In this document: in pieces, positions 11,095 through 56,565 of the stretch
Layout: the number at the start of each line of letters is the position of its first letter
Position numbering within the stretch: position 1 is the first letter of the stretch
NCBI GenBank assembly: GCA_964406405.1
Contig: CAYORN010000002.1
Location: 64,161-128,160, forward strand
Source of the DNA: an uncultured Alphaproteobacteria bacterium
GTDB lineage: Bacteria > Electryoneota > RPQS01
Reading direction: 5' to 3'
DNA length: 64,000 bases
Notes under the pieces: model-generated
Told to the model about the DNA's origin: nothing
The model's input: the letters and a program-made list of their open reading frames with translations, nothing else
Databases searched by the model: none
Translations under genes and position numbers: made by a program

Positions 11095-11100
11095 CGGAAA

Positions 11101-11230
11101 GGATGAAGGCGGAAGGATGAAGGATGAACCGGAAACATTAGAGTCACCTTCGTCATTCATTTCAATTACCCTGTCATCGAGCACCTTTATGCTGAAGAAA
11201 TTCATCCTTCATCCCTCATCCTTCATCCTT
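11101..11230. repeat. inverted pair of GGATGAA heptad arrays (MITE-like, about 130 nt)
   Basis: left arm ggatgaaggcggaaggatgaaggatgaa (11101-11128); right arm ttcatccttcatccctcatccttcatcc (11201-11230) is its reverse complement; about 70-nt spacer contains the start codon of the next gene. Confidence 0.7.
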
Positions 11231-19224: not shown

Positions 19225-19256
19225 GCCCCCCCTTACCCCCCCGTAAACGGAGGGGA
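19225..19256. repeat. poly-C hairpin element P, intergenic copy
   Basis: gcccccccttacccccccgtaaacggagggg; close match to the lpxB copy gcccccccttgcccccccgcaggcggagggg at 25117. Confidence 0.7.
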
Positions 19257-22243: not shown

Positions 22244-23848
22244 ATGGCTACGCTACATGAGTTCGTGAAAAACAGCCCGATGCTCGCCTATATTGAGAAG
22301 CGCCGGATGCAGGTATCAAAAGTCGCGTCACCCGAGACTCGAAAACATCTCGGTCAGTTTCTTACACCTGCGCCCATCGCTCACTTCATGGCCTCACTTT
22401 TCACATGCAGGTCAAAGCACGTTTTCTTGCTTGACGCAGGGGCTGGCATCGGATCGCTAACGGCAGCATTTGTTGACCATGTTCTTGCCTTGAGACAGCC
22501 CCCGGAATGCGTGTCGGTAGTCATGTGGGAAGTAGACCCGGAAATGCTCGCGCATCTCTCGAATGTGGTAAGACGTTGTCATGATGAATGTCACAAGATT
22601 GGGATCAAGTTCACGGCCGTCATTATTCCGGAAGATTTTACCGAATCCGGTGCAGAGATAATCTTAGACCGTTTATTGGGGAAGCGCACCTATGCCTTCA
22701 ACTGTGCAATTCTAAACCCGCCCTACCGCAAGATTCAGACAAACTCTCCAGAGCGGTTGGCCCTCCGAAAAGTTGGACTGGAAACCAGCAATTTGTACGC
22801 GGGCTTCGTGGGTCTGGCCATCAAACTGCTGAATCCTGGTGGACAGCTTGTCGCAATCACACCGCGAAGTTTCTGCAACGGCCCATACTTTAGGCCTTTT
22901 AGAGAACTGCTTCTGCGGGAGATGCGATTTCGACTCATACACACATTCGAGCGAAGGGATCGAGCTTTCGTCGGCGATGGTGTCCTCCAAGAGAACATTA
23001 TCTTTCATGCCGTCAAGAATACGCGTACCGAAAAGTGGGTTACTATTTCTTACAGTCATGGAGCTGAAGACGCGACGTTGTCTTCCCGAAAGGTGCAGCA
23101 TGATGCCGTGGTATCGTTATCTGACCCAGAGTTGATCGTGCATGTTCCACACAGCAAGTATGACCAGGCCGCACGTGAGAAGATCGACCTGGAAAAGATG
23201 ACTCTCGTTGATTTGGGCATTAGTGTTTCGACGGGCAGGGTGGTGGATTTTAGAGCGCGGGAATTTCTCCGCATGCAGCCGGGCAGTGACACAGCGCCGC
23301 TGATATACCCGCTGCACTTTGAAAGCGGTTTTGTCACCTGGCCAAGATTATCTGCGAAGAGGCCGAATGCCATTGAGGTTAACGACACTACGCGACATAT
23401 GTTGGTGCCCAAGGGGTATTATGTGCTCGTGAAGCGCTTCACTTCCAAAGAGGAACGCCGCCGGATTGTGGCGGTAGTGCTTGACCCTAATCGCATTGCG
23501 GCCCCTGAATTTGCTTTCGAGAACCACATCAATTTCTATCACGCAAACGGACACGGTTTGCCCGAAGCGTTAGCGAAGGGACTTGCGGCATACTTGAATA
23601 CAACGACCGTCGACCGGTATTTCCGGCAATTCAGCGGGCATACTCAGGTTAATGCATCCGATTTACGAAAGCTGACTTATCCGGATCGCGCGGCACTGGA
23701 AGCGATTGGCTCTCAATTAGGTCCAGCGTTTCTCTTTCAGGAAGAACTGGACACACTCGTAGACGAGGAACTCGCATCGTGGCGAAACAAGCAACAAAGC
23801 AGCCAGCCGAAATTCAAAGCCGCATCAAAGAGGCTCTCACTGTTCTGA
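22244..23848 (+). CDS. type II N6-adenine DNA methyltransferase (PstI/BsuBI-like gamma-class)
   Basis: motif I FLLDAGAGIGSLTAAF; motif IV NPPY (AILNPPYRK); 534 aa, close to M.PstI/M.BsuBI size; visibly lower G+C than neighbours. Confidence 0.75.
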   Translation: MATLHEFVKNSPMLAYIEKRRMQVSKVASPETRKHLGQFLTPAPIAHFMASLFTCRSKHVFLLDAGAGIGSLTAAFVDHVLALRQPPECVSVVMWEVDPEMLAHLSNVVRRCHDECHKIGIKFTAVIIPEDFTESGAEIILDRLLGKRTYAFNCAILNPPYRKIQTNSPERLALRKVGLETSNLYAGFVGLAIKLLNPGGQLVAITPRSFCNGPYFRPFRELLLREMRFRLIHTFERRDRAFVGDGVLQENIIFHAVKNTRTEKWVTISYSHGAEDATLSSRKVQHDAVVSLSDPELIVHVPHSKYDQAAREKIDLEKMTLVDLGISVSTGRVVDFRAREFLRMQPGSDTAPLIYPLHFESGFVTWPRLSAKRPNAIEVNDTTRHMLVPKGYYVLVKRFTSKEERRRIVAVVLDPNRIAAPEFAFENHINFYHANGHGLPEALAKGLAAYLNTTTVDRYFRQFSGHTQVNASDLRKLTYPDRAALEAIGSQLGPAFLFQEELDTLVDEELASWRNKQQSSQPKFKAASKRLSLF

Positions 23849-24765
23849 AGGCTATTGGTATGCCCAGAGAGCAGATCAATGAGCGATCCGCGCTGACCTT
23901 GCTTTCACTCGTGGGGCTAAGGCCTCAAGTACGTTGGAAGAGTGCACGAACGGAGTCTCGCGGTGTAACGCAGATGATGGAGTTCATGGCGACCGAATAT
24001 CGGAAACGCTATGCACCTAACACGCGCGAAACCGTCAGGCGATATGCGTTGCATCAATTCGTTCAGGCTGGAATTGCCCTAAAGAATGCCGACGATCCGT
24101 TGCGCCCCACAAACAGTCCGGACACAGTTTATTGTGGAGCACCTCCGCTGCTTGAACTCTTGAAAACTTTTGGAACTACTAAGTGGGAATCAACTCTCCG
24201 CAAGTTCCTTATTGCGCAGCCCGCTCTGAGCCAGAAATATGCCGCCGAACGAACGCTCCCGAGACTAAGAGTCAAGCTTCGAAAAGGACAGAGCATTGCG
24301 TTATCGCCGGGCGGTCAGAATGTACTCGTAAAGCGGATTGTTGAAGATTTCTGTCAGCTTTTTACTCCAGGTGCATCCGTTGTGTATGTTGGCGATACAA
24401 GCAAGAAATGGGCTTACTTTGATCAAGCACTGCTTTCGACTCTCGGCATTGACATAGAAAAGCATGGAAAAATGCCTGATGTCGTAGTGTATCAGGCAGA
24501 GAAGGGTTGGCTCGTGCTGATTGAGGCTATCACCAGCCATGGACCGGTAACTCCAAAACGGCAAAACGAACTCAAGGAGCTATTTGGGAGCACATTAGCA
24601 GGCTTGGTATTCGTCAGTGCGTTTCTGAGCAAGAAATCCCTGTTGAAATACTTGCAGGAAATTGCCTGGGAGACAGAGGTTTGGGTCGCAGAGCATCCTA
24701 CTCACATCATTCACTTCAACGGTGAAAGATTTCTGGGACCCTACGAATCAACGACCAGTGTCTGA
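23779..24765 (+). CDS. putative type II restriction endonuclease (BsuBI/PstI-like); start uncertain (alt. ATG 23860)
   Basis: 328 aa immediately after the MTase; N-terminal KEALTVLKAIGMPREQINERSALTLLSL; PD-(D/E)xK-like MPDVVVYQAEKGWLVLIEAITSHGP; low G+C. Confidence 0.5.
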   Translation: MAKQATKQPAEIQSRIKEALTVLKAIGMPREQINERSALTLLSLVGLRPQVRWKSARTESRGVTQMMEFMATEYRKRYAPNTRETVRRYALHQFVQAGIALKNADDPLRPTNSPDTVYCGAPPLLELLKTFGTTKWESTLRKFLIAQPALSQKYAAERTLPRLRVKLRKGQSIALSPGGQNVLVKRIVEDFCQLFTPGASVVYVGDTSKKWAYFDQALLSTLGIDIEKHGKMPDVVVYQAEKGWLVLIEAITSHGPVTPKRQNELKELFGSTLAGLVFVSAFLSKKSLLKYLQEIAWETEVWVAEHPTHIIHFNGERFLGPYESTTSV

Positions 24766-26038
24766 GCATCTCATCTTCATTTCCGCCGGCGAGGCCTCCG
24801 GTGACACCCATGCGGCGGGAGTAGTTCGTGAGTTGAAATTGCGTTATCCGGATGCGACGTTCTTTGGCATTGGCGGGGATCAGATGCTGGAAGCGGGAGT
24901 CGAACTGATCGAGCACGCGCGGCGGATGTCGTTCATGGGATTCGCCGAAGTTGTGCGGCATCTGCCGTTCATCTACGCCACGCGCACGCGCGTGCTAAAA
25001 GAGATCGTCGTGCGGCGGCCCGATCTGATTTTGCTCGTTGACTATCCGGGGTTTCATTTTTCGCTGCTCAGAAGTTTGAAGCGGATGAAGATCATTGGAA
25101 AGCCGAGTCAAAGTTCGCCCCCCCTTGCCCCCCCGCAGGCGGAGGGGAAATCTGCTTCATCCTTCATCCTTCATCCTTCATCCTTTCCGAGAGTTCTCTA
25201 CTACATTCCGCCGCAGGTGTGGGCGTGGAAAGCGGGACGGGCGAAGGAACTGGCGAAGCTGGCGGATCGGATTGCGGTGATCTTTCCGTTTGAGGTAGAG
25301 ATCTTCAATAAGGTGACCCCCCCTGAATCCCCCCCGCTAAAGCAGGGGGGAAAGGCGGTGTTTGTCGGGCATCCGCTGTTAGATGAAGTGGGAGACATTC
25401 CGCCGCGGGGGCAGTTTCTCAAGAGCATCGGGCTGGAGCCGGATGACCGGGTGATCGGGTTGTTTCCGGGTTCGCGCAAGCAGGAGATCCGGCGCCATCT
25501 GCCGGTGTTAGTGGAGACGGTGCGCCTGCTGCGGCGGTTTCATCCGGAATTGAAATTCATTCTGGCCGAAGCGCCGGGCGTGCCGCTGGATCTGTACACG
25601 CGGTTGCTGCGCGACATTGCGGGAATCGTGCGCGTGGGCGGCGTGTCGCACGAAGTGCTCGCGCATTGCAACGCGTCCTTCGTGAAGTCCGGCAGCAGCA
25701 CCGTGGAAGCGGCGTACTTCGGCAATCCGTTCGTGGTGTTCTACAAGGTGTCGGCGCCGAGCTATGCGATCGGCAAGCGCATCGTGAAGGTGCCGTACAT
25801 TGCCATGGCGAATATCCTCGCGGGCGAGATGGTGGTGAAGGAGCTGATTCAGGATCAGGCCACGCCGGAAAATCTCTTCGCCGCCATGCTGCCGCTGATC
25901 AATTTGCCGGAGAGCGTGGAAGCCTGCCGCGCGGGACTCAGGAAAGTTCGCGCGCAGTTGGGCGAACCGGGCGCGGCAAAGCGAGTGGCGGAATTGGCGG
26001 GGGAACTGGTGGAAGAAAGGATGAAGGATGAAGGATGA
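24758..26038 (+). CDS. lpxB: lipid-A-disaccharide synthase LpxB carrying two in-frame repeat-element insertions
   Basis: GTG start (GTGTCTGA overlap with REase stop); LIFISAGEASGD, VSPxVWAW-like YIPPQVWAWK, FPFE; 30-aa and 14-aa extra segments coincide with repeat elements. Confidence 0.85.
   Translation: MSEHLIFISAGEASGDTHAAGVVRELKLRYPDATFFGIGGDQMLEAGVELIEHARRMSFMGFAEVVRHLPFIYATRTRVLKEIVVRRPDLILLVDYPGFHFSLLRSLKRMKIIGKPSQSSPPLAPPQAEGKSASSFILHPSSFPRVLYYIPPQVWAWKAGRAKELAKLADRIAVIFPFEVEIFNKVTPPESPPLKQGGKAVFVGHPLLDEVGDIPPRGQFLKSIGLEPDDRVIGLFPGSRKQEIRRHLPVLVETVRLLRRFHPELKFILAEAPGVPLDLYTRLLRDIAGIVRVGGVSHEVLAHCNASFVKSGSSTVEAAYFGNPFVVFYKVSAPSYAIGKRIVKVPYIAMANILAGEMVVKELIQDQATPENLFAAMLPLINLPESVEACRAGLRKVRAQLGEPGAAKRVAELAGELVEERMKDEG
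25117..25179. repeat. composite element: poly-C hairpin P + TTCATCC heptads, in-frame within lpxB
   Basis: gcccccccttgcccccccgcaggcggaggggaaatctgcttcatccttcatccttcatcc translated as SPPLAPPQAEGKSASSFILHPSSF. Confidence 0.75.
25317..25350. repeat. poly-C hairpin element P variant, in-frame within lpxB
   Basis: ccccccctgaatcccccccgctaaagcagggggg translated as TPPESPPLKQGG. Confidence 0.7.
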
Positions 26039-26050
26039 GGGAGGAAGGAA
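26018..26050. repeat. GGATGAA heptad array at the lpxB 3' end
   Basis: aaggatgaaggatgaaggatgagggaggaagg; gives the LpxB ORF a ...ERMKDEG tail. Confidence 0.65.
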
Positions 26051-26145
26051 TACAAACTCCAAACCTCAAACTACAAACTTCAAACCTCGTTCAAGCGATA
26101 CTCTTGTTTTCAATTTTCGATTTTCAATTTTCAGTTTGAGTTTTT

Positions 26146-30322: not shown

Positions 30323-32812
30323 ATGTCGCGGATTGATCTGCACGTCCATAGCCGGTACTCGGATCGGCCCACGAACTTCTTCCTGAAGAAGATGAAGGCG
30401 CCGGAGAGTCTGACCGAGCCGGAGGCCGCCTATCGGCTGGCCAAGCGGCGCGGCATGGACTTTTTTACGCTGACCGATCCGGACACGCTGGAAGGGTGCT
30501 TGGAATTGTCCAGGCATCCCGATGTCTTCCCGTCGTGCGAAACGACGGTGGCGTTTCCCGATAACGATTGCAAGATCAAGCTGCTGCTCTATGGCCTGAA
30601 CGAAGCGCAGCTCAAGCATCTGCTTGCGTATCGCGGGAACATCTTTCAGGCGCGGAATTATCTGCTCGCGGAGAATATCTTTCATGCCGTCGCCTCGCCG
30701 CTGGAGCCCTTGAACGCGCGGCTGGGTGTGGATCACATCGAGAAGCTGCTGCTGCTGTTCGATCATTTCGAGACGCGCTCCGGAATGCGGCACCCGCGGA
30801 CAAACGAGTTCATCACGGCGCTCCTGGACAGCTTGACGCCGGAGTTTCTCTTTGATCTCGAGCGCAAGTGGCGGATTCAGCCGGCGAGCGAAAAGCCGTG
30901 GCAGAAGGGGTATCTCGGCGGCTCGAACGATTATTGCGGGCAATACATCGGCCTGACGTGGACCGATGTGCCCGGCGTGCGGACGACGGGAGAATTGCTG
31001 GACAGTTTGCGGCGGCGCAGCGGCACGCCGGGAGGGATTCACGGCAGCACGCTCGCCGCGGCGCACTCGATGTACCGCGTGGCGTTTCAGTTCTACCAAA
31101 AGAACTTGCGGCGGAAAAACGTCCGCGAGCCGGACCTGATTTCGCTCCTGCTCTCGCGAGTGCTGCAGCCGGAAGAAGCGCAGCGCCTGACCGTACGTCA
31201 AGCGGCGGCGATGACAATGGCGATGCTGCGGCGGCTGCTTCACCCGCGGCGCGGGCCGTCGTACATTGAGCGGCGGTTAATGCGTGAATTCATCCGGGCC
31301 TATAACCGCATTCCGGCGAGCGAACGTCTGCGCGATATTCCGCGCGACGATTTGGTGACGTATGACGAACGGCTGTACAGTCTTGTGGATCGCGTGATGG
31401 GGGAAGTGACGTACCGGCTGCTGGAGCGGGCAACACGGGAGTTCGAGCGCGGGCGTGTGGGAAATGCGCTCTCTCTGGGCGCGGCGATTCTGCCGGTGCA
31501 GGCGGTGCTGGGGCCCTATCTTTATTCCTTCAACCGGATGAACTCCGACCGGCCGCTGCTGGCAAAGTTGGAAGCACGCTTTTCTCCGGCGCTCGAATTG
31601 CCGCCGTTGCGCGCACCGCGAAAAAAGATCGCCTGGTTCTCGGACACGATTACGGACGTCAACGGCGTCTCGCTCACGCTGCACAAAATGGCCGAGGTAG
31701 CGGAAAAGCTGAACGCGGATCTGACGATTATTTCGTCGGTCACGCGGGACAAAGCGCCGCAGGGACCGAAGTTCTTGAATTTCGAGCCGGTGGGCGAGCT
31801 GCCGGTTCCCGATTATGAATTGCAGAAGCTCGCGGTGCCGCCGGGATTGCAGATCATTCGCTATCTCGAACAGGCAGGATTCACGGAATATGTGATCTCC
31901 ACGCCGGGGCCGGTGGGCATGATTGCGCTGCTCGCCGCGAAGATGCTGCATGTTCCGGTGCGGGCAATTTATCACAGCGATTTTCCGGAGCACATACGCC
32001 ACATCACCGGCGACGAGGGCTTGTATCAGGCCGCGTGGACGTTCATGCGCTGGTTCTACGGCAAGGCCGACGCCGTGTACTCGCCCAGCGCCTTCTATCG
32101 CGACCAGTTGATCGAGCACGGTTTCGATCCGACGCGAATGTTTATCTTTACGCGCGGAACGGATCTTGATTTCTTCAATCCCAAGCATCGCGACGACACG
32201 TTCTATCAGGCATGGGGGATCCGCGGCCGGGTGGTGTTTCTTTACACCGGACGAGTGTCGCGCGAGAAGAATCTTGACACGGTGCTGGATGCGTTTTGGG
32301 GCGATGACGAGTTGAAGGCGAAGGCCGCGCTGGTCATCATCGGCGACGGACCGTACGCCGGCGAGTTGAAAGAACGCTACAAGCATCCGGCGATTGCGTT
32401 TCCGGGATTTATGAAAGGCAAGAATCTCGCGCGGGCATATGCGTCGGCGGATGCGTTTGTCTTTCCCTCGACGACGGACACGTACGGCAATTCCGTCCTG
32501 GAAGCGCAGGCGTCCGGCTTGCCATCGCTGGTCTCGGACGAAGGCGGCCCGAAGGAGATTATTCTGCCGAATCAGAGCGGCTTCGTGCTGCCAGGGCATG
32601 ACGTGCCGGCGTGGCGCGCGGCGATGCGCGATTTGACAATGGGCACAGAGCTTCGCGCCCGCATGGCCTCGGCGGCGCGGGCACGAGCGGCGACAAGGGA
32701 CTGGACCACGGCGTTTCGGGAGTTTTGGGAGGTAGATCCGTACGGAAAAAGTTCAAACCCAAAATCCCAGATCCAAGATCCCAAATCCCAGTCGGAAGTA
32801 CCCCGGCCTTAG
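30323..32812 (+). CDS. fusion protein: N-terminal PHP-domain phosphoesterase + C-terminal GT4/GT1 glycosyltransferase
   Basis: IDLHVHSRYSD...FFTLTDPDT (PHP); C-terminal ...FLYTGRVSREKNLD...EAQASGLPSLVSDEGGPKEII (Glycos_transf_1); low-complexity tail from an A/C-rich repeat. Confidence 0.7.
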   Translation: MSRIDLHVHSRYSDRPTNFFLKKMKAPESLTEPEAAYRLAKRRGMDFFTLTDPDTLEGCLELSRHPDVFPSCETTVAFPDNDCKIKLLLYGLNEAQLKHLLAYRGNIFQARNYLLAENIFHAVASPLEPLNARLGVDHIEKLLLLFDHFETRSGMRHPRTNEFITALLDSLTPEFLFDLERKWRIQPASEKPWQKGYLGGSNDYCGQYIGLTWTDVPGVRTTGELLDSLRRRSGTPGGIHGSTLAAAHSMYRVAFQFYQKNLRRKNVREPDLISLLLSRVLQPEEAQRLTVRQAAAMTMAMLRRLLHPRRGPSYIERRLMREFIRAYNRIPASERLRDIPRDDLVTYDERLYSLVDRVMGEVTYRLLERATREFERGRVGNALSLGAAILPVQAVLGPYLYSFNRMNSDRPLLAKLEARFSPALELPPLRAPRKKIAWFSDTITDVNGVSLTLHKMAEVAEKLNADLTIISSVTRDKAPQGPKFLNFEPVGELPVPDYELQKLAVPPGLQIIRYLEQAGFTEYVISTPGPVGMIALLAAKMLHVPVRAIYHSDFPEHIRHITGDEGLYQAAWTFMRWFYGKADAVYSPSAFYRDQLIEHGFDPTRMFIFTRGTDLDFFNPKHRDDTFYQAWGIRGRVVFLYTGRVSREKNLDTVLDAFWGDDELKAKAALVIIGDGPYAGELKERYKHPAIAFPGFMKGKNLARAYASADAFVFPSTTDTYGNSVLEAQASGLPSLVSDEGGPKEIILPNQSGFVLPGHDVPAWRAAMRDLTMGTELRARMASAARARAATRDWTTAFREFWEVDPYGKSSNPKSQIQDPKSQSEVPRP

Positions 32813-32890
32813 GGTTGGTTTGTGCGTGGTCGTTTCGGCGGGTCACTTTGCTTGTTTCAGGTTTCAAGTTTCACATTTCAAATATTCTTT
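32745..32890. repeat. A/C-rich heptad array and complementary T/G-rich heptad array (inverted, about 60-nt spacer)
   Basis: aaaagttcaaacccaaaatcccagatccaagatcccaaatcccag ... gtttcaggtttcaagtttcacatttcaaatattc; similar pairs at 26040..26145 and 49480..49530. Confidence 0.55.
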
Positions 32891-37300: not shown

Positions 37301-37627
37301 GCAGAAGGAGTGAATCGTGCTGACCGGCATGGTGTCGAGTTCGAGCAGGGCGCGCCGGTACGATGCACGGTCCGGCGCGTTCTCTTGCGCGCGCGCTTCG
37401 AGTTGTTTCCGCAGCTTGATTTTCAGTTCGCCCGCGGCCTTTTCGGTGAAGGTGATCGCGACCACCTGCGCCAACGGCACTTGCCGCTCGCGAACAATGG
37501 TTAAGATGCGTTCCACCAGCAGCGTAGTTTTTCCGGTTCCCGCGGCGGCTTCGACGATGTAAGTCGTGCTCAGGTCGCTGGCGGCGAGCGTGCGCTCGTG
37601 TTGATCTACAATCGGGCGCTCGCTCAT
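34391..37627 (-). CDS. addA: ATP-dependent helicase/nuclease subunit A (AddA/RecB-like UvrD helicase + PD-(D/E)xK nuclease)
   Basis: Walker A AAAGTGKTT; UvrD motifs; C-terminal nuclease VIDLMFVE...IIVDFKTD; start ATG overlaps addB stop (ATGA). Confidence 0.85.
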   Translation of the reverse strand: MSERPIVDQHERTLAASDLSTTYIVEAAAGTGKTTLLVERILTIVRERQVPLAQVVAITFTEKAAGELKIKLRKQLEARAQENAPDRASYRRALLELDTMPVSTIHSFCRELIQERPVEAGVEPNFSVADQATAELLRAEVWEEWIAGEFSGECPAARPLLERGISALSSRGFSLRDLYEVLLNYREDLDALHVATLNDDALSKRFAAFREELRSELTALDACKNREDGLAKELLKIQEWLARGDTLDLMNAATWLEQKPELSKRSPGQQANWSSKEIQERAKLLRAEFETRADAVYAEFVSRWADNAVQWLKGAAEAYAQAKTLRGRLDFHDLLLLARNMLQTSRAARAFFKERFTFILVDEFQDTDPLQTEIVFFLAEQPDSFAGEWEDVELVPGKLFIVGDPKQSIYRFRRADLDLYGKVREKIEACGKCLHIRMNFRSVPDILHEVNDVFAAHMTGERNGRYEPEYVALEPYRDAVTSPQTVFLAPPDSWWDNKPNAKQQAQAEAACIAEYIREQVQQHGRTYRDIGILYSATTHLTELEHALRSREIPYQVAGGKKFIERSEVTALRTVIAALDNPFDESSVVGALRSPFFACSDEDLLVQRWDGDGFNYLRCDGALPHVEECLALLRELHRQKARRAPSETIADLFARAKGLQIYALKPHGDGRVANLLKLLDMARALENDAGSSFHALARRLAKLEDTRAAEDDSATAETGDNVVQLLTFHKAKGLEFPLVMLFRLGHVNNRPEGPLIARGTKALEFSARKGFATAGYLAASEDDHDREACEHMRLLYVAMTRAREQLVIPAYWCDATKGFYKLLRTRYTSLGQMPETGHTRFTVHDSSRYSLDVPPTEALKIELDMPENDPRVGASIAAKAGWEQQRRVAVEQLNRSRAFATPSRSSSLGISANGHGVNRDAAKFGSYVHRLLERVTLPDGANLGRICLSSAEEFGIRENRIQEGCDLVRAALKSDLFQRAYRAEALYREVPFADVQDGVLWEGVIDLMFVEQDQLIIVDFKTDAISTNELPDSAQHYAAQLHAYRRAMEKIAGKPVAELLLYYLRPNTTVAVPPLKVTV

Positions 37628-40600
37628 TCGGAACCTTCGCGCAAAACGCGCAACGCGTCGGTTTGCGGCAGCTCGTAATCCCACTTGTGCGTGAAGCGTC
37701 CGGTGCCGCACGCCGCTTTCGCCGCGCAGAACTGGCAGACATCATTGGGCGTGGGGAAGAACTGGCCATGACCGACGAGGCCGGACACCTCCTCTATAAG
37801 CCGGGTGATGCTGGCGCGGTTCTGCTCCCAGGACTCGCGCGAGATTTCTATCGTCTGCGCTTCCTCCGTGCCGAGGAAATAGTACGCAAACGCGCCCACA
37901 TCGAGACCGAGCGCGGCGGCCGCGAGACGGGCGACGTGCGGCTCCAGTCCTGCCGCCGTGTCGTGCTGTTTAGCGCGATTCTCGAATTTTGCTGTGGTGT
38001 AATCCACCAGCCGCACCGCGCCATCCACGCCGATGTCCACGCGATCAATCCTGCCATGCAGCCGCAGCGTGTAACCGTTGCCGATTGGCAAGGTAACCGG
38101 CTCACGGCGAGACAGCTCGGAATCGCCCTCGTCTAAGCCATAGGTCACGTTAAAGTGCGCCGGACGAAAGGAGGAGGCTGCATTCACTTCGCACGAGAAA
38201 AACGCTTGCAACCGTTGTTTGATCCGCTCCTTTTCAATGTCCCAGAGGAGCGGCAGCCCGGGCACAAACTTGCGCTCAAACTCGGCGAAGCTCTCGTCCG
38301 CCGTGGAGGCCAAGCGCGGCCAGGCGTCGGCCGTTAAGGGCCAGCGGTTCGCCCGGGTTTCGGCGCGATAAAAGTGCTCCAAAATGTCGTGGATCAGCAT
38401 GCCGCGCGCGCGCGGTTCGAGCGGCTGAAGCCAATGCGGTTCGGCGGTGGGTTCCAGTTCGAGCAAGTGCATCACAAAATATTGAAACGGGCAGTCGAGG
38501 TAGCGTTGGATGCGACGCGGCGAGAGTGACGGGATCCATACCTTCAGACGCTCGCGCAAGCTTTGCGATTCGATGCTGCCGTCGAAAGGCGTGAACTCGC
38601 GCGCGCGATACCGCATGTGTTCCGCGTGCACGCCACGCTGGAATGCGGGATCCGCGCAGAAGAGATAGGCGACGTTGTCCGCGCTTTTCGTATGCAGAGC
38701 CATGCCGAGGCGGGCGAGGTCATATTGAAACGGCGTAACGGCCTGATCGGGGCGCTTTCCTTGCAGGCGATTGAGCGCCACGCGCCGCGCTTGCGGACTG
38801 GTACGGACAAAGGACTCCAACGACTCATAGTCGGCGGCATTCCCCGTTGCCGCCTCGAGCGCGCGCAGCAGAAATGCCGAGGCCAGCCACTCGCGGCCTT
38901 CCACCGGATCGAGGCGCGAGTAAGTGAGCACGACGCGGCGGCGCGCGGAGTTCACCGCGGTACGAAAGAGAAAACGCTCGCGATGGCGCAGCCGCGAGCG
39001 CAGCGGAATGGCAATGTCCGGGTGGTGCAGAGCACGCTGCAATTGCAGGCGCTCGTCGTCGAGCAGCAGCGGGTCTTGCGCGGTGGGACGCGGGAACTCT
39101 TTCTCCACCACGCCGCAGAGAATCACATCATCGAACACGACGCCAAACGCATCGGAGATTCTCGCAATGGTCGGCTCATGGACCTCGAACTTGCCTTCGC
39201 GGTCGAGCGGCTGCGACAGCAACGATTCAATGAAAGAAGAAAACTCGGCGGCATCCGGCTTTAGTCCCAGAGCATCGAGCAATGCCGCGTGCGTGAGTTG
39301 CTCGCGGATCAACTCCGCCTCGCCGTTACTCTCCACGAACTCGACATAGAGTGCGGCGGTGCGCTCGCCGATCTCCCGCCATGTTTTCGCCTTGCGGACG
39401 GCCGTGATTCCGGCAAACAACCGCTCGATGTACTGCTGGAAAACATCCAGCGACGCCAACTGGCGTTGCAGCGGAGCGGCAGGATCATCCATCTCCCGTT
39501 CGCGGCGCGCGAGTTCTTCCTCAAGCTGATGACATAAGCGGGATAGGTTCTGCCGCCACGGCGTCTCGCCGGCGATGATCTGCGCCTTGAGCGTGAAGTG
39601 ATTCCACTCCGCGGCAGGGACTTCGGGCAGTTCCGGAGGGAAATAGGCTGGGCGGCGGAGCGGCGACGAGAGCAGGAATTCCATCACGTCCGTACGACGG
39701 AACACGCCGTCGAAGAGCCTTACCAGCCAGCGCAGCGCGCGGCCCGAGGGCGTGTCGCCCAGCCTGCGGCACTCATGGATGTAACTCGTGATGCCGGCGC
39801 GCGACCACTCCTCACGCACGAGCGGGAGATAACTTGCGCTCTCGCGCATCAGGACGCCAATTGTTTCTCCCCTCCGTTCACGGGGGGGACTAAGGGGGGG
39901 CGAATCTGGTCCAATGCCGAACGACTTCGGATGCGATGCCGACCCGTACACCACCTCCCTCAGTATTTCCTCCACTTCACTGTCCCGGCCCGCCGCCGAA
40001 ATCACCCGAAAACTCTCATCTCCCCCTACTTCAGTAGGGGGATTAAGGGGGTCATCTTCAAGTGTCTCTTCAAACACTCCCAGTTGCACCCGCGCGAGCG
40101 CGTTGTCCTGCCCGGCGCGCTCGTCCGGCTCCAGCAGCTCGGCTTCGAAACCCTGTTCGAGATACCATTGGTAGAGCGGTTCGCTCCAGACATAGGCATC
40201 GGACGCACGAAAGGGCAAATATGCGATTGTTTCACATCCCGCCATCGCCCGCAGGATCAACTGCCGCTTCATGGCACTCAGATCATCCAGGCCATAAACG
40301 ACCAGACCCGCTTTCACGTTGCCTGCGGCTTGCCCTGCTAACTCGATCAGCATCGCGTGATCGGCGAGCTTGTGCCTTCGCATCAGTCCGTCCAACGCAC
40401 GCCAGATCGCGGCTATCTCTTTTAGTTTTTGGCGCGTGAGATCGCTGACCTGCGGACGATCGGACGCCGGCAAGATGTCTTCGGCAGTGAGCCCGACGGC
40501 TTTGAGTTCGTGAATCGTTGTCCACGCGGCGCGCTGGAAGCCCTTGCGAGGGGCCATGCGATGGAAATAGCGCAGTGAACACATTTCGACTGCGCGCTTC

Positions 40601-40905
40601 ATCAGCGGGTCCCGTTCGACATCGGAGATCATCCGCCAGCCCCGCTCGACCAGAAGCGGTGACGCGAGGTCATGCGCGTAATCTGTGAGCGTGCAGAAAC
40701 GAAGATTGGCATGACTCACGCCGGCGCGCGCCAATTCCCGTCGCAACGACAGCCCCGCCAGCACGCCGGGGACGAGCACAACCAATGGCGCCAGCGGATC
40801 GCGTTGGCGCCATTCGCGCAGGTCGGCGATGAATTGCGCCTGCAATTCGGGGAAATCCCCGGCAAAGAGGCGGCGGCTTGGGGAGGATGGGTCAGGCAGG
40901 GTCAC
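37624..40905 (-). CDS. addB: helicase-nuclease complex subunit B (AddB/RexB-like) with two in-frame poly-C element insertions
   Basis: C-terminal PD-(D/E)xK nuclease with Fe-S cysteines GRIDRVDIG...LVDYTTAKF...CQFCAAKAAC; immediately upstream of and overlapping addA. Confidence 0.8.
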   Translation of the reverse strand: MTLPDPSSPSRRLFAGDFPELQAQFIADLREWRQRDPLAPLVVLVPGVLAGLSLRRELARAGVSHANLRFCTLTDYAHDLASPLLVERGWRMISDVERDPLMKRAVEMCSLRYFHRMAPRKGFQRAAWTTIHELKAVGLTAEDILPASDRPQVSDLTRQKLKEIAAIWRALDGLMRRHKLADHAMLIELAGQAAGNVKAGLVVYGLDDLSAMKRQLILRAMAGCETIAYLPFRASDAYVWSEPLYQWYLEQGFEAELLEPDERAGQDNALARVQLGVFEETLEDDPLNPPTEVGGDESFRVISAAGRDSEVEEILREVVYGSASHPKSFGIGPDSPPLSPPRERRGETIGVLMRESASYLPLVREEWSRAGITSYIHECRRLGDTPSGRALRWLVRLFDGVFRRTDVMEFLLSSPLRRPAYFPPELPEVPAAEWNHFTLKAQIIAGETPWRQNLSRLCHQLEEELARREREMDDPAAPLQRQLASLDVFQQYIERLFAGITAVRKAKTWREIGERTAALYVEFVESNGEAELIREQLTHAALLDALGLKPDAAEFSSFIESLLSQPLDREGKFEVHEPTIARISDAFGVVFDDVILCGVVEKEFPRPTAQDPLLLDDERLQLQRALHHPDIAIPLRSRLRHRERFLFRTAVNSARRRVVLTYSRLDPVEGREWLASAFLLRALEAATGNAADYESLESFVRTSPQARRVALNRLQGKRPDQAVTPFQYDLARLGMALHTKSADNVAYLFCADPAFQRGVHAEHMRYRAREFTPFDGSIESQSLRERLKVWIPSLSPRRIQRYLDCPFQYFVMHLLELEPTAEPHWLQPLEPRARGMLIHDILEHFYRAETRANRWPLTADAWPRLASTADESFAEFERKFVPGLPLLWDIEKERIKQRLQAFFSCEVNAASSFRPAHFNVTYGLDEGDSELSRREPVTLPIGNGYTLRLHGRIDRVDIGVDGAVRLVDYTTAKFENRAKQHDTAAGLEPHVARLAAAALGLDVGAFAYYFLGTEEAQTIEISRESWEQNRASITRLIEEVSGLVGHGQFFPTPNDVCQFCAAKAACGTGRFTHKWDYELPQTDALRVLREGSE
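39869..39902. repeat. poly-C hairpin element P (reverse orientation), in-frame in addB
   Basis: revcomp cgcccccccttagtcccccccgtgaacggagggg translated as DSPPLSPPRERRGE. Confidence 0.7.
40022..40051. repeat. poly-C hairpin element P variant, in-frame in addB
   Basis: revcomp ccccttaatccccctactgaagtaggggg translated as DDPLNPPTEVGGDE. Confidence 0.65.
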
Positions 40906-47206: not shown

Positions 47207-48469
47207 CTAATTGGGCGGCCTGTGGGGCCGCCCAATTCCTTTGGGCTTAGCCCGGCCACTTTTAGACTTCTTGCCTTCGCCACTTGCATTTGAGGAAAGT
47301 GCCTTAAACAAGGTGTCTGTACGCGCAAAGAATACGTCCCAATTGGCTCGCCATTTACCTTCATTTCGTGTGACCTTCAGCAATTCTGCCAGGCGGGGAC
47401 CTGTTTCCTCCCATAAGCCGCGATAAGACGACCATTGACGCGAGCATCCTCCGCACGTCACAAGGACCTTTTGCCCGCCCGACTTAAACTCAATATCAAT
47501 ATGTGTCTCCCCGCATTCAGGGCAACGCATATCATATTCACTACATGTCTGCTCCAGTTCCTCCAAGCTAACCAATTCTAAACGCCGCACGTGAGGGCGG
47601 ACCTTATGGTACCCTTCGCTTACCGGATTGTGTCTTATGTGCTGGTGTACAATCGTGAAATATCTTGTCTTGATTTCACCCCATATCCGTTCATGTCCGG
47701 CCTGTGGTTCAATTGAGTGGTGAAAATCACAGAGTGTAACCAAGTTTGACGGCGTGTGTTCCCCTCCCTGCGAGACAGGAAGCTTATGGTGAATATGTTT
47801 GGGAACTCTCGAAGGACATCCGGTTACTTGGCATCTCTGGTCATCTCTGTCAAGAACGATTTGTCTAAGATAGCCCCAAAATGGCGGGTAGCCTGGCCAG
47901 TTGTCGAACACGTGCATGACCTTAAGGTCCGTCCCAGACAATACTGCCTCGGGATCATGAAAGTGTCTAAGCGTGGGCTCAAGTGGCGGTACATAAATCT
48001 CATTCCACCGCCTTAGTCTCCTTACATGAATATTCCCTAACGCAAGAGCTACGCAAGAGACAACAACCGGGACAAAAAAGAGCCACCAGTGAACAAATAG
48101 TAGCAATAATAATCCAGCGGCAAGTATTCCTACCAAATTGGATGTTTTGTTAAATGGGCAATTGTGTCTAAAGGTGTCCCTGGCGAGTCGGTGAGCTTCT
48201 TTCTCCTTGAGATATTCGCGCCAGAGTTTTTCGTACTTCTCTGGATAAGTGATAGATGCTATCTTCTGAAAACAAGTCTCGCAGAGAAATGATTTATCAT
48301 TAAGTGAAAGTCCAGCGTTTCTGTTTGCGTCACAAAATAAGCACTTTGTTCCTACACTGGACACTTGATGATCTGCGTCGACTTCAGCCCGCTTGATGAG
48401 CTTGCCTACATCCACTTGCGACAAAAATTGTTTGGGATTATATAATGAATGCCAGCGTTCTATTGACAT
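47207..48469 (-). CDS. membrane-anchored HNH endonuclease with N- and C-terminal zinc ribbons (Zn-ribbon/2TM/HNH/Zn-ribbon), low-GC island
   Basis: CLFCDANRN...CETC; two TM (LVGILAAGLLLLLFVHWWLFFVPVVVSCVALALG); HNH core CQVTGC...HIHH...GGEHTPSNLVTLCDFHH; CPECG...CGGC; G+C visibly about 50%. Confidence 0.6.
   Translation of the reverse strand: MSIERWHSLYNPKQFLSQVDVGKLIKRAEVDADHQVSSVGTKCLFCDANRNAGLSLNDKSFLCETCFQKIASITYPEKYEKLWREYLKEKEAHRLARDTFRHNCPFNKTSNLVGILAAGLLLLLFVHWWLFFVPVVVSCVALALGNIHVRRLRRWNEIYVPPLEPTLRHFHDPEAVLSGTDLKVMHVFDNWPGYPPFWGYLRQIVLDRDDQRCQVTGCPSRVPKHIHHKLPVSQGGEHTPSNLVTLCDFHHSIEPQAGHERIWGEIKTRYFTIVHQHIRHNPVSEGYHKVRPHVRRLELVSLEELEQTCSEYDMRCPECGETHIDIEFKSGGQKVLVTCGGCSRQWSSYRGLWEETGPRLAELLKVTRNEGKWRANWDVFFARTDTLFKALSSNASGEGKKSKSGRAKPKGIGRPHRPPN
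47209..47237. terminator. 12-bp perfect hairpin (bidirectional terminator candidate) overlapping the 3' codons of the HNH gene
   Basis: AATTGGGCGGCC-TGTGG-GGCCGCCCAATT; preceded by two ~24-nt hairpin units (GGAGAGTGCTTCGGCACTTCGG / GGAGAGTGCTGCGGCGCTCCG). Confidence 0.45.
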
Positions 48470-48568: not shown

Positions 48569-48690
48569 TCATAACGTCCGCAGCTCACTCTTCGGATAAT
48601 AATGTTCCAGAATCCCCTCCACACTCTTCCCCGCCTTCGCCATGGCGCGATAGCCGGCAAGTCCTTGAAGGAGCGTCCATGACCACCTGA
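48569..48690 (-). pseudogene. 3'-terminal relic of a SpoIID/LytB-like gene (about 40 codons)
   Basis: minus-strand translation ...LLQGLAGYRAMAKAGKSVEGILEHYYPKSELRTL* matches the C-terminus ...LCQLGAAAMAKAGRSVESILEHYYPHSELREL* of 49760..51343; coordinates approximate. Confidence 0.4.
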
Positions 48691-49028
48691 TCTTCACATC
48701 TCCAGATTAGCAGATCCGGCGTTCATCGTTCAAAGCCTGCACTGGACACCGTCTGCGGGAGTCCAGTGTTCCGCGTTCATCGTTTCGGCAATTCCTCTCT
48801 TTTCGCATTGCTGACTTTTCCGATCCGATTGCAAGTGCAAGGTCAGTTTTGCGTATCCAGAATCGGCATCGGCAATTACCCCAAAAGAAACCTTTTCCCT
48901 TCCTCCCGCGTCCAACCCTTAGCCCACCACCTTGTCATTCTGAAGGCCATTCCGATGGCCTGAAGAATCTCAGCCCCCGTGCCTAGCCTCAGTCTTCTCC
49001 CCGATTATCCCGTCATAGCCTCGAAGCT

Positions 49029-49060
49029 GAGATCCTTCCCGCAGACGGTCAGGATGACAA
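49029..49060. repeat. REP-like element E, degenerate copy 3
   Basis: gagatccttcccgcagacggtcaggatgacaa. Confidence 0.6.
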
Positions 49061-49759
49061 TTGCAACAGCACACGGCCGTGTGCATCTACCTTCTCTACC
49101 TTCCTCTTTCCTACTTCTCATTTCCTATCTTCTTCTTCCGCCGCTAAACCGGACATCCCGAGACCCCCGGTTCTTCTCTTCAATAGAGCACCAGCGCCAG
49201 GACCAGCCGAATGTGGAGCAATCCGCTAAGCCCCTGCTGTCTGGCAACATGAACCGGGGCATCCTCTCTTCTCCCTTTCTCCACTCACACCATCAGTGAA
49301 TCAATAATCCACGAATTCCGGCTTTACCTTCCCCCATACGAATGGGGGAAGAATCAAAGAAGGGGGTGGGGAAAGGGCCGGGGATAGGGGTTCACCATCT
49401 CTCGACATGGCAAGCCGGAGGCCCCAGGGCTGTGCCTGCTCACAGCCGACCGAAAACTGGCATGACGGAACGAAGAACGGCAAAAATCAAGAATTGAATC
49501 CGACTTCATTTTTTAATTTTCGATTTTTGTCTGGCAGGCTCTGATCCCAAGAACGTTTGGGGACCTGCGGATGGACGACAATATCATGTCGGACGTCCCG
49601 CCCGCAGGGGTTTCACGAAATCAAAATGAAATGGAAGCATGTTGGCTTGTCGGATTGTCCGCTTGTCGGCATGTTCCTGCATACGTCCGGCTATATCTTG
49701 TTTCACACAAGACGAACGGCTATTTGACAATTGAAAACAACGGGCGATGCAATCGGCCC

Positions 49760-51343
49760 CTACAACTCCCTCAACTCGGAGTGTGGATAATAGTGTTCGA
49801 GAATACTCTCCACACTCCGCCCCGCTTTTGCCATGGCCGCCGCGCCTAATTGGCAGAGGCCGACGCCGTGGCCCCACCCGCCGCCCGTCAAGGTGATCGT
49901 GTCGCCGTGGATGTCGAAGACGAAGAACGACGAGGGCAGGTGCGATGACGAGAGTGCGCGTCGGATGTTGAGTTCGCCATAGATCACGAAGGAGGCTGAT
50001 CTGCCGACAATTTCCAGGACGAGAATACGCCCTGAGGACCCGCGGCGCTTGACGTGCAGCGATTTGATCGCACCGACTTTTGTGCCGGTTTTGCTCGCGA
50101 TCAATTCGCCCAATTCCGCGCACGAATAGGTGCGTTGCCAGCGGAAGAGCGGGTCTGTGTCCCACGGCTCGGGATAGGGAAACAGCTTGTCGTTGCACCA
50201 CGCCGGCGGATGCGAGAGCACGAACGCGCGCGCATGCTCCTCGTCCGTCAAATCGAGCACGGGGAACTCGCCGCACGCGCGTACCGCGAAATACGCCGGC
50301 CCTTCGTCACCCCACGCTTCTTCATAAAGTTCGCTCACGCCGCCGCAGGACTTCGCATACCTCGCGTCTACGACGCGGGGAAAGGATGAAGGATGAAGGA
50401 TGAAGGATGAAGCAGACCCCCCTTTTGTCCCCCCACTAAGGTAGGGGGAGACTAAGACTTTTCCGGCGGAATCACGAATCGGAGCCACAACTGCGTTGGC
50501 TTCACGATACGTACCTTGATAACACTGGCAGTGATCGTCGTTGCAGAGATCGAAGCCGTCGGCGCGGTGATGGCGGCCCGCCGTGGCGAGCACCGTGGAA
50601 CGCGCGGCAATCGCCTGCGCCTGCGAGAAGGCCGGCGGCAAATCGGAACGCATCTCGCTGCCGACCGCGCTCTCAAGGTACATTTCGAGCGGCAGAATAT
50701 TGACCGCCGTGAGATCGTGCCCCTGCGGCTGAAAGAGTTTCAACGAACCGCGATATTCGAGCTGCTCCTTGTGCTCCCAATGAAAGCCGCGGCCGATCGG
50801 CACGTCGTAGAGCCAGAACACCGCAACGTCGTTCAGCGGCCGCGTGCGCACCTCGAGCACTTTCGCGGAAAAATCGCCGAGCGTAAATTCGAAGTACTCG
50901 GCAGGCTTGGCTTCATTCAGCTTGACGACGGTGAAGCCGAGTACGTTCAGCTCGTGGCGCGCACGCAGCACCTCCATCACGTTGGCAGCGTGCTCGGGCG
51001 AATTGACGCGCACGGTCGGCCACCAGACGCGGTTGTCGAGCGTGCCGTTGGGCGTTTCCCATTGCCGCCCGGCTTCGAGCATCAAGAGATCCTCGTTGGC
51101 CGCGAGATCGCCAACGAAGGAAAGCGTGCGCTCGGCATGTTCACGCGAGAGCGATTCGGCCAAACGCAAACCATAGCTCTCGTTGGGTTCGCTGGTCACC
51201 GCGTGAGCTTCGAAATATCCGGCAATCTGGTCGAATTTCAAACTGCGGCAGCAATCCGTGATGCAGATCACTTCGTGATCGCAGATCAGTTCGCCGCGGA
51301 TGTGCGGCTCTTCCCAGAGCAGGCCGATGGAAACGGAAAGCAT
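49760..51343 (-). CDS. SpoIID/LytB-domain protein (amidase-enhancer-like) with in-frame repeat insertion
   Basis: LPLEMYLESAVGSEM...AQAIAARSTVL...HHRADGFDLCNDDHCQCYQG (SpoIID domain); ...ARYAKSCGGVSE; start taken at MLSVSIG (51343) because upstream in-frame codons are repeat-derived. Confidence 0.7.
   Translation of the reverse strand: MLSVSIGLLWEEPHIRGELICDHEVICITDCCRSLKFDQIAGYFEAHAVTSEPNESYGLRLAESLSREHAERTLSFVGDLAANEDLLMLEAGRQWETPNGTLDNRVWWPTVRVNSPEHAANVMEVLRARHELNVLGFTVVKLNEAKPAEYFEFTLGDFSAKVLEVRTRPLNDVAVFWLYDVPIGRGFHWEHKEQLEYRGSLKLFQPQGHDLTAVNILPLEMYLESAVGSEMRSDLPPAFSQAQAIAARSTVLATAGRHHRADGFDLCNDDHCQCYQGTYREANAVVAPIRDSAGKVLVSPYLSGGTKGGSASSFILHPSSFPRVVDARYAKSCGGVSELYEEAWGDEGPAYFAVRACGEFPVLDLTDEEHARAFVLSHPPAWCNDKLFPYPEPWDTDPLFRWQRTYSCAELGELIASKTGTKVGAIKSLHVKRRGSSGRILVLEIVGRSASFVIYGELNIRRALSSSHLPSSFFVFDIHGDTITLTGGGWGHGVGLCQLGAAAMAKAGRSVESILEHYYPHSELREL
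50383..50449. repeat. composite GGATGAA heptads + poly-C hairpin P, in-frame within the spoIID-like gene
   Basis: ggatgaaggatgaaggatgaaggatgaagcagaccccccttttgtccccccactaaggtaggggg read on minus strand as SPYLSGGTKGGSASSFILHPSSFP. Confidence 0.75.
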
Positions 51344-51387
51344 AGAGAAAATTGAAAAATGAAAATCGAAAATTGTCGTCTTTTTGT

Positions 51388-51497
51388 TTGTCATCCTTGA
51401 ACGAAGCGCGTCTGCGCGCGTAGTGAAGGATCTCTCCGGGCAACAATCTGAAGCAGAGAGATCCTTCAGCCCGAAGACGGGCTTCAAGGATGACAAG
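51388..51497. repeat. inverted pair of REP-like E elements flanking a 23-nt spacer
   Basis: ttgtcatccttgaacgaagcgcgtctgcgcgcgtagtgaaggatctc ... gagatccttcagcccgaagacgggcttcaaggatgacaag; preceded by A-rich heptads gaaaaattgaaaaatgaaaatcgaaaattg. Confidence 0.65.
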
Positions 51498-56470: not shown

Positions 56471-56565
56471 ACCCCCTTTGTGTTTCCCCCAAAACGAGTT
56501 TTGGGGGAAAGAGCATTATGCTCTCGAACAAATATTCATGAAAGAACCTTAAACAGGAGGCCGCG

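Follow-up and report, generated by a model that had tools for sequence, protein, structure and literature searches.

In-Frame Heptanucleotide Arrays and C-Run Hairpins in the SpoIID/LytB and lpxB Genes of an Uncultured Bacterial Lineage

Introduction

How does a conserved enzyme gene come to hold a block of repetitive DNA and still keep its reading frame? The question is raised by a gene for a SpoIID/LytB-domain protein located on the minus strand of a 64-kb stretch of contig CAYORN010000002.1, from an uncultured bacterium (64,000 nucleotides, hereafter the window). Within this gene, four copies of a heptanucleotide (heptad) lie next to a hairpin element that contains runs of cytosine. An original prediction had described the block as an in-frame interruption that typical SpoIID domains lack, and had proposed that its two parts, found again in lpxB, travel together as one unit resembling a MITE (miniature inverted-repeat transposable element). 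Comparison with orthologous genes indicates that the two parts are separable, and we favor an origin in two steps, probably an older heptad array followed by a hairpin, both tolerated in permissive loops.

Repeat DNA within the SpoIID/LytB Gene

The minus-strand open reading frame (ORF) spans 49760-51496; the actual gene is the shorter interval listed in Table 1, which is 100% identical to the 527-aa database protein P0001, encoded on an NCBI contig of 968 kb. The lineage was placed by its named relatives, metagenome-assembled genomes of Calditrichota and KSB1, and by the type IX secretion domains described below. Tandem Repeats Finder reported a repeat of period 7 at 50382-50412 (4.4 copies, 100% match). 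On the plus strand the array is followed by a 39-nt element composed of GCAGA (50412-50416), C6 (50417-50422), TTTTGT (50423-50428), C6 (50429-50434), ACTAAGGTA (50435-50443), G5 (50444-50448) and a final AG, which can be split into stem and loop as GCAGA C6 TTTTGT C6 AC-TAAG-GT A G5 AG. The sequence was as first described, and only its coordinates had to be moved by 1-2 nt, the array beginning at 50384 and the 39-mer ending at 50450. Translation of the minus strand runs through the insert as ...AGKVLV-SPYLSGGTKGGSASSFILHPSSFP-RVVDARYAKSCGG..., with RVVDARY after the insert and no stop codon, and yields the predicted peptides ...VLVSPYLSGGTK and GGSASSFILHPSSFPR. The view that repeat DNA interrupts a conserved gene in frame was therefore borne out by an ORF that reads through.

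The alignment of 20 sequences showed that the insert-free state consists of three residues (HER, YQQ, HEN, KDG, HDR or FDR) between ...G.VL. and R.VDARYAKSC. This state was seen in outgroups and in some members of the clade, and the segment is absent from typical SpoIID. The conserved SpoIID motifs near the insert are all intact, including CNDDHCQCYQG and AKSCGG. In the AlphaFold model, which has a mean predicted local distance difference test (pLDDT) score of 80.5, strands 295-299 and 323-324 enclose the insert, and residues 303-317 score below 50; the model indicates a disordered, floppy surface loop.

Inserts of similar length, 10-11 residues, occupy the same site in many orthologues and adjoin the conserved Cys/His cluster (CNDDHCQC ... 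AKSCGG), as might be expected if the peptide were an adaptive addition to SpoIID, such as a flexible loop modulating the binding of a substrate or partner. We consider this very unlikely, given that the peptide is set by repeat DNA found also between genes and in lpxB, a signal peptide and an AddB-like gene, that unit types swap among close relatives, that the loop is predicted to be disordered and that several members of the clade have no insert. Removal of the segment at expression, by way of a mini-intron, an intein or translational bypass, is scarcely credible, and so is an assembly artefact: the segment keeps the frame, contains no stop codon, has a length far below what an intein or self-splicing intron needs and has no Rfam match, and the same arrays were recovered in independent assemblies from ENA, JGI and NCBI.

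The hexamer ACTAAG of the SpoIID hairpin loop (50435-50440) recurs directly past the 39-mer, at 50451-50456. The second occurrence belongs to flanking sequence that is present at the empty site too. The recurrence may be due to chance, or the loop may have been templated from the target.

An Array Allele without the Hairpin

The DNA of orthologous genes was retrieved and the insertion site was compared base by base with that of the window; the loci are referred to by number. The closest orthologue with available DNA, L001 (89% aa identity), reads GTCTTAGT-T(TCATCC TTCATCC TTCATCC TTCATCC)TTTCCCCGC. It has the identical four heptads and the identical 3' junction, has no poly-C piece and is otherwise collinear. 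Against this allele, the window has exactly 39 additional nucleotides (50412-50450, GCAGA...GGGGGAG), which separate the first heptad from the flank. No target duplication was found between the filled site of the window and the empty site of L001, except for an ambiguity of 1 nt, and the same comparison revealed no terminal inverted repeats on the 39-nt insertion.

Other orthologues carry arrays at the same codon boundary. L210 has (TTCATCC)4 at 65% aa identity, L208 has (TTCAAGT)4, L209 has (CTCATCC)4, and L211 and L003 have two arrays each; L002 has a single TTCAAGT unit and three residues at the site. The alleles form a series of empty (L002 and outgroups), array alone (L001), and array plus hairpin (window). 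Both pieces are present and separable, and the gene is intact. Since an array without a hairpin exists in L001 and further orthologues have arrays, the array must be old or recurrent at this site, and the hairpin later and specific to a lineage. A neighbor-joining tree was compatible both with one old gain of the array followed by losses and with several gains at the same boundary.

A tract of 7-nt units, whose length is not a multiple of three, would shift the frame upon the gain or loss of one unit, so that SpoIID could be switched off and on as at a contingency locus. Phase variation in Haemophilus is reportedly driven by heptanucleotide tracts (PMC8262952). The array here has only four units, a number that is constant in the window, L001, L208, L209 and L210, and housekeeping genes, lpxB among them, contain the same arrays. 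L003 and L004, two samples of one species, are 99.994% identical and have no indels, and the absence of length polymorphism between them argues against phase variation, which we regard as extremely improbable. Phase variation, like the intein, intron, bypass and assembly artefact considered above, was rejected on this evidence.

The annotated orthologue of L211 (candidate division KSB1, GCA_016214895.1) has 674 aa and seems to extend upstream into a SpoU methylase region; its start was probably mis-called.

Hairpins and Heptads at Two Loops of lpxB

The lpxB gene carries two hairpins and one array in frame (Table 1). At site 1, the TCTGC and TTTCC that border the array are the same as in SpoIID, and the two genes share an identical stretch of 38 nt, TCTGC(TTCATCC)4TTTCC. 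An alignment of LpxB proteins showed repeat inserts at two loops and at the N-terminus, with some orthologues having no elements; L212, for instance, is empty at sites 1 and 2. The orthologous composites at site 1 differ in their heptads. The window has the hairpin followed by AAATCTGC and (TTCATCC)4. In L213 the order is (AAACTCG)4, the hairpin of the window with one loop base changed, AAATCTGG and (CTCATCG)4, and L214 has (CCAAATC)3-4, a different hairpin variant and (CTCATCG)n. The heptad unit therefore varies among orthologous lpxB composites while the hairpin stays. The site 2 hairpin is common to the window and L214, with identical runs and spacer and with four of nine loop bases changed.

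Read along the coding strand, the heptads of SpoIID and lpxB point the same way, and the hairpin is flipped, being reversed in SpoIID and canonical in lpxB. As a consequence, the lpxB composite is not the reverse complement of that in SpoIID. The expectation that poly-C and heptads would be found together in lpxB proved right (25118-25183), and the expectation that they would simply lie in the opposite orientation did not.

Some additional features of this gene and its surroundings were observed. A (GGATGAA) array at 26017-26049 encodes the end of LpxB (..ERMKDEG) and its stop codon in the window; this is also the case in L214 and not in L212 or L213. Between a GFO_IDH_MocA gene and lpxB the window has a PstI/BsuBI-type restriction-modification pair (22244-24765), and at this spot L212 (422-931) has a 169-aa Y1 (IS200-like) transposase flanked by the inverted repeats GGGGTCTATRGGTCC / GACCCCGCCGAAAT. 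Judging from these occupants, the spot looks like an integration hot spot.

The C-Run Hairpin Family

The hairpins of the window have a common form: C5-7, an AT-rich spacer of 3-13 nt, C5-7, a variable inner stem of 1-4 bp, a loop of 4-5 nt and G4-6, with a bulged or mismatched A often preceding the G-run. Their loops include TAAA, TGAA, CAGG and TAAG among others, and their length is 30-39 nt. A search for the C-run/C-run/G-run pattern found eight distinct elements in the window, where 0.01 were expected, five on the plus strand and three on the minus strand (Table 1; the pattern within SpoIID starts at 50417). Five of the eight are intragenic and in frame, two in lpxB, two in an AddB-like nuclease gene and one in SpoIID, the latter being read in reverse orientation to give GGTKGG.

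The inner stem is supported by covariation. Eighteen copies from the window and its relatives contain 32 inner Watson-Crick pairs, compared to 7.9 in shuffles (P<2e-4), and the stem variants are G-C, GC-GC, AC-GT, TAC-GTA, AT-AT and AAAAC-GTTTT. Fold prediction returned hairpins of the expected form. The G-rich strand folds more stably because a recurrent C.A mismatch becomes G.U (or G.T) on it. The fold z-scores of the composite stretches of SpoIID and lpxB site 1 were not significant, since the shuffles retain the C and G runs. Rfam gave no meaningful match to the whole window at the gathering threshold or to the element and downstream regions at permissive E-values.

A strict 23-base motif was found on 85 metagenome contigs, with the consensus cAGA-C7-TAA-C7G-TRAA-CGGAGGGG-GA. 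Several metagenome copies (L134, L161 and L147) are inverted pairs 14-16 nt apart; no inverted doublet is present in the window. Viral contigs gave three hairpin matches and no match to the composite, an uninformative result. The KSB1 locus L211 holds eight C-run hairpins within 4 kb around its SpoIID orthologue, all antisense to the gene.

Both parts thus occur elsewhere, as the original prediction had expected: a 21-nt heptad probe had 15 matches in the window and none in 100 shuffles, and the eight hairpins include those of lpxB. Could heptads and poly-C nevertheless be parts of a single composite element, MITE-like and transposing as a whole? The two parts lie within 10 nt of each other at two loci of the window, SpoIID and lpxB, which share the 38-nt stretch, and heptads likewise flank a hairpin in the lpxB orthologues L213 and L214. 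Against this, only these two hairpins adjoin heptads, the remaining six have none nearby, and most arrays have no hairpin. In the metagenome sample, 4 of 96 hairpins lie within 30 nt of a heptad array, where 1.8 would be expected, an association not clearly above chance. The half-filled allele of L001, the inversion of the hairpin relative to the heptads between the two genes and the many solitary copies argue against a single unit, and so do the missing terminal inverted repeats and target-site duplication and the exchange of heptads around a constant hairpin in lpxB. The proposal of joint, MITE-like movement was therefore abandoned; we hold it to be highly improbable.

Table 1. Positions of the repeat elements and their host genes in the window.
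Feature	Position	Strand	Description
SpoIID/LytB-domain gene, host of the insert	49760..51343	-	527 aa plus stop; ORF, Pfam PF08486, synteny with L003/L004
Heptad array GGATGAA x4	50384-50411	+ (letters)	Coding strand (TTCATCC)x4; read SSFILHPSSF; probably the older component
39-nt C-run hairpin element	50412..50450	+ (canonical)	Antisense to SpoIID; read SPYLSGGTKGGSA; later insertion
lpxB gene	24758..26038	+	Contains, in frame, two hairpins and a heptad array
lpxB site 1 hairpin	25118..25147	+	C7 TTG C7 G-CAGG-C GGA G4; read PPLAPPQAEG
lpxB site 1 array (TTCATCC)x4	25156..25183	+	TCTGC before, TTTCC after, as in SpoIID
lpxB site 2 hairpin	25317..25350	+	C7 TGAAT C7 GC-TAAA-GC A G6; read TPPESPPLKQGG
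Hairpin copy, intergenic, upstream of polysaccharide-synthesis gene	19226..19255	+	Pattern search
Hairpin copy in AddB-like PD-(D/E)XK nuclease gene (37624-40905)	39869..39900	-	In frame; read SPPLSPPRERRGE
Second hairpin copy in AddB-like nuclease gene	40022..40051	-	Read PLNPPTEVGG; fold z-score -4.6
Hairpin copy, intergenic, downstream of SpoIID	49331..49366	-	Pattern search
Hairpin copy, intergenic, upstream of Por_Secre_tail gene	56472..56507	+	Pattern search

Heptanucleotide Arrays beyond the Two Genes

The exact 21-mer (TTCATCC)3 is spread over many phyla: among the matches listed (loci L005-L122) it was present in more than 100 genomes, with Cyanobacteria, Planctomycetota, Acidobacteriota, Chloroflexota, Verrucomicrobiota, Bacteroidota and Betaproteobacteria among those represented. 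In these matches the arrays often form inverted pairs around a spacer of 20-70 nt and often lie beside other heptad arrays. Period 7 dominated the tandem repeats in 912 kb made up of the window and loci L005-L122, with 346 arrays compared to 39 of period 6 and 73 of period 8. The copy number of the period-7 arrays peaks at four and falls sharply above five; among the 192 arrays outside the search criterion, 50 had two copies, 54 three, 60 four, 19 five and 9 at least six.

Orientation within genes follows from the code. As three consecutive heptads cover all three frames, (TTCATCC)n is always read as FILHPSS without a stop and the opposite strand, (GGATGAA)n, has TGA in every frame, so that only sense-oriented arrays survive in genes. 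All three TTCATCC arrays within coding sequence of the window are in the stop-free orientation, and the GGATGAA-oriented ones sit at or just past stop codons. A protein search with (SSFILHP)n found only short spurious ORFs over long arrays and was uninformative for inserts of this kind, since those of four units are too short to score.

Further arrays were noted in the window. One (11201-11231, in the region 11189-11260) is read within a lipoprotein-like signal peptide, MLKKFILHPSSFILLFLLLGC, and its inverted partner (11099-11128) lies just past the stop of the upstream LpoB-like gene. Other heptad families, AATTTTC, CAAACCT, TTTTCAA, CAAATCC and GTTTCAA, are present at 51347-51375, 26053-26137 and 32754-32881; one such array ends 3 nt before the SpoIID start codon and another enters the C-terminus of a glycosyltransferase ORF (30323-32812).

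Conservation of the Elements

Divergence from the window at four-fold degenerate sites was 32% for L001, 25% for L213, 35% for L214 and 51% for L210. Within the shared array (L001) and hairpins (L213 and L214), 26 four-fold sites showed no change, where about eight changes were expected; the probability of such a zero is about 1e-4 if the sites are independent. Concerted evolution shrinks the target of an array to one 7-nt unit and can explain swaps of the unit, for example from TTCATCC to CTCATCC and on to CTCATCG; it is not an obvious explanation for the intact C-runs.

One reading of these observations is that hairpins and four-heptad arrays are functional nucleic-acid motifs under selection, and that their translation is a side effect. 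Possible roles would be protein-binding or recombination sites, hairpins in mRNA or antisense RNA, or a hairpin/G-quadruplex switch on the G-rich strand. Besides the unchanged four-fold sites, this is favored by C/G runs and spacers that stay intact while loops drift, by the stem mismatch that folds better on the other strand as G.U/G.T, by the uniform length of arrays, about four units both within and between genes, and by arrays that persist between genes at syntenic positions of genomes with about 80% identity. Seven of the eight hairpins in the window share one orientation relative to transcription. However, all eight copies of L211 have the opposite orientation, many orthologues do well without the elements, Rfam had no match, and gene conversion among copies or recent re-insertion could give the same conservation, which was measured on a small sample of independent sites. 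Selected motifs are, in our opinion, unlikely, although less so than the other alternatives weighed here.

A Proposed Two-Step Origin

The explanation that we find moderately probable is that an older heptamer array was followed by a hairpin like those of REP (repetitive extragenic palindromic) sequences or the small dispersed repeats (SDRs), both being tolerated and translated in permissive loops. The two kinds of repeat would be unrelated to each other, and both are frequent in this genome. In the first step, an array of about four units would have taken the place of the three-residue turn between two beta strands. In the second and recent step, the 39-nt hairpin would have entered at the 5' edge of the array without target-site duplication, the frame being kept by chance. 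The hairpin would be a non-autonomous element of the REP/SDR type whose single-stranded DNA hairpin is copied by a trans-acting enzyme, for which an HUH/Y1-type protein would be the obvious candidate. Enzymes of this type insert without target-site duplication. Persistence of the hairpin wherever the protein tolerates it would explain the pile-up of hairpins and arrays at the same few loops.

Both repeat classes gather at the same permissive loops of several enzymes. We infer that hairpins either prefer arrays, which has been reported for cyanobacterial SDRs, or share these loops simply because tolerant sites are scarce. Both pieces are presumably translated, forming a disordered surface loop with which the enzyme remains functional.

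A number of observations weigh against the two-step explanation. No transposase and no REP-associated tyrosine transposase (RAYT) was detected by a Pfam scan of about 45 ORFs of the window, and a tblastn search of 1.5 Mb of sampled loci with the Y1 transposase of L212 gave no match, so the search for a mobilizing transposase that the original prediction had called for found none in either set. The sole Y1_Tnp seen, that of L212 beside lpxB, is flanked by repeats unrelated to the hairpin. Translation of the insert is predicted from the intact ORF. The two of eight hairpins located at heptads could point to targeting rather than to shared tolerance. Arrays stop at about four units almost everywhere, unlike the prediction of simple slippage. 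Finally, the elements are better conserved than synonymous sites, so that they look too conserved for pure junk, and the excess may stem from selection acting on the nucleic acid, from gene conversion or from re-insertion.

A more far-reaching interpretation would make four-heptad arrays and C-run hairpins two forms of a cassette of about 30 nt, written into DNA and homogenized or re-targeted by an enzymatic system that prefers sites already holding a cassette, shared across phyla and kept at the nucleotide level even in essential enzymes. If this were true, the cassette would represent a class of ultra-small mobile or templated elements apart from REP/RAYT and from simple slippage. We give it little credence. 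The uniform four-unit arrays, the occurrence of TTCATCC in many phyla and the excess conservation bear on what generates or maintains heptanucleotide repeats in bacteria.

Comparison with Known Repeat Systems

The element works like REPs, Rickettsia palindromic elements (RPEs), SDRs and heptanucleotide long simple-sequence repeats (LSSRs), and is a demonstrable member of none of them. The likeness to REPs and to REP doublets forming hairpins (REPINs) lies in GC-rich imperfect palindromes of 20-40 nt, in many dispersed copies and in G.T/G.U stem pairs: the C-run/G-run with its covarying inner stem is a GC-rich stem-loop in this size range, there are eight copies in 64 kb, and some metagenome copies, none of them in the window, are inverted doublets that may resemble REPINs. 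REPs also lie within genes, many of them repair genes (PMC3733652), and as with intragenic REPs, where some copies are read in frame and often in DNA-repair genes, there are copies in the AddB-like nuclease. In contrast, REPs have a GTAG/CGTC tag at one end (PMC3733652), and the hairpin consensus has none; GTAG is present in just two of the eight hairpins of the window, inside the stem. The hairpin has an additional upstream C-run and spacer, it is intragenic in five of eight cases whereas REPs are mostly extragenic, and no RAYT gene flanked by hairpins was found in the window or in the 1.5 Mb of sampled loci.

RPEs, reportedly described by Ogata et al. in 2000, are said to be selfish palindromes found in frame within conserved protein genes whose ORF is kept. 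The hairpins resemble them in their in-frame insertion with a maintained ORF at tolerant sites of the fold (SpoIID, lpxB twice, AddB-like twice). However, RPEs are about 100-150 nt long and the hairpins 30-39 nt, the phylum is different and the sequence presumably so, and the hairpins co-occur with heptamer arrays.

Cyanobacterial SDR1-8 (Elhai et al. 2008, Genome Res 18:1484) are reportedly 21-27 nt long, and several form hairpins with compensatory changes, often within tandem heptamers or nested in repeats. They are not known to be associated with a transposase. Insertion of SDRs into other short repeats has been reported, and the same source reports SDRs only in Nostocaceae (PMC5861425). 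The element described here is likewise a dispersed repeat of less than 40 nt with a hairpin supported by covariation, and some hairpins lie beside heptads, both in the window and its lpxB orthologues and, at the low frequency given above, in metagenomes. It differs in its KSB1/Calditrichota-related lineage, in its C-run architecture and in copies that are often translated in enzymes.

Heptanucleotide LSSRs were reportedly described by Mrazek et al. in 2007. Examples include the cyanobacterial short tandemly repeated repetitive (STRR) sequences, the TAACTGA repeats of Beggiatoaceae (PMC4679880) and GGGAATC/GGGGATT repeats (PMC4692102). Heptamers are over-represented among bacterial simple-sequence repeats, one heptamer may be scattered over distant phyla with no known vector, and stop codons set its orientation in genes (PMC4692102, PMC4679880). 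The arrays share these properties: head-to-tail repeats of period 7 are dominant, mostly intergenic and often in inverted pairs, one unit extends over distant phyla without a known vector, and stop codons govern orientation in genes. The differences are the unit itself, TTCATCC, a copy number held tightly at about four, and insertion in frame within conserved enzymes, where orthologues share the codon boundary. The variation in copy number among relatives that slippage would give was not seen, L002 alone having a single unit.

Bacterial MITEs, too, are small and non-autonomous, and a reading frame can pass through them (Coxiella, PMC5896051; review PMC10969869). They measure 70-300 bp and have terminal inverted repeats and target duplications, whereas the 39-nt hairpin has neither and so, strictly speaking, does not count as a MITE.

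The kind of element is therefore already known, and the sequence family and the lineage, related to KSB1/Calditrichota, are new. An uncultured lineage of the FCB group tolerates stacked tiny repeats in frame at a few loops of SpoIID/LytB, LpxB and an AddB-like nuclease, which extends the phenomenon of RPEs in Rickettsia and of intragenic REPs to a repeat architecture and a phylum that are both new. For annotation, peptides of predicted proteins such as PPxPPxxxGGE, GGTKGG and SSFILHPSSF should be read as translated repeats and not as domain features, and they can distort alignments and gene starts.

Other Features around SpoIID

An element of about 109 nt that resembles a MITE is located just upstream of SpoIID (51388-51496) and has perfect terminal inverted repeats of 14 nt, TTGTCATCCTTGAA / TTCAAGGATGACAA. 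A variant of it lies downstream of the gene, at about 48930-49090, and a related piece is read in frame at site 2 of lpxB in L213. A 420-aa HNH-motif protein with a membrane segment is encoded between a peptidase M3 gene and SpoIID (47207-48469); the syntenic loci L003 and L004 lack it, and the protein is not IscB-like. Pfam identified type IX secretion system (T9SS) Por_Secre_tail domains among the proteins of the window.

The 3' end of SpoIID (49764-49837) has a 74-nt copy at 48573-48646 with 76% nucleotide identity. The copy encodes AMAKAGKSVEGILEHYYPKSELRTL*, identical to the C-terminus of the orthologue P0004, and lies 1.19 kb past the end of the live gene, separated from it by non-coding DNA full of small repeats. 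This arrangement suggests that an insertion into the 3' end of SpoIID may have brought or regenerated a new gene end.

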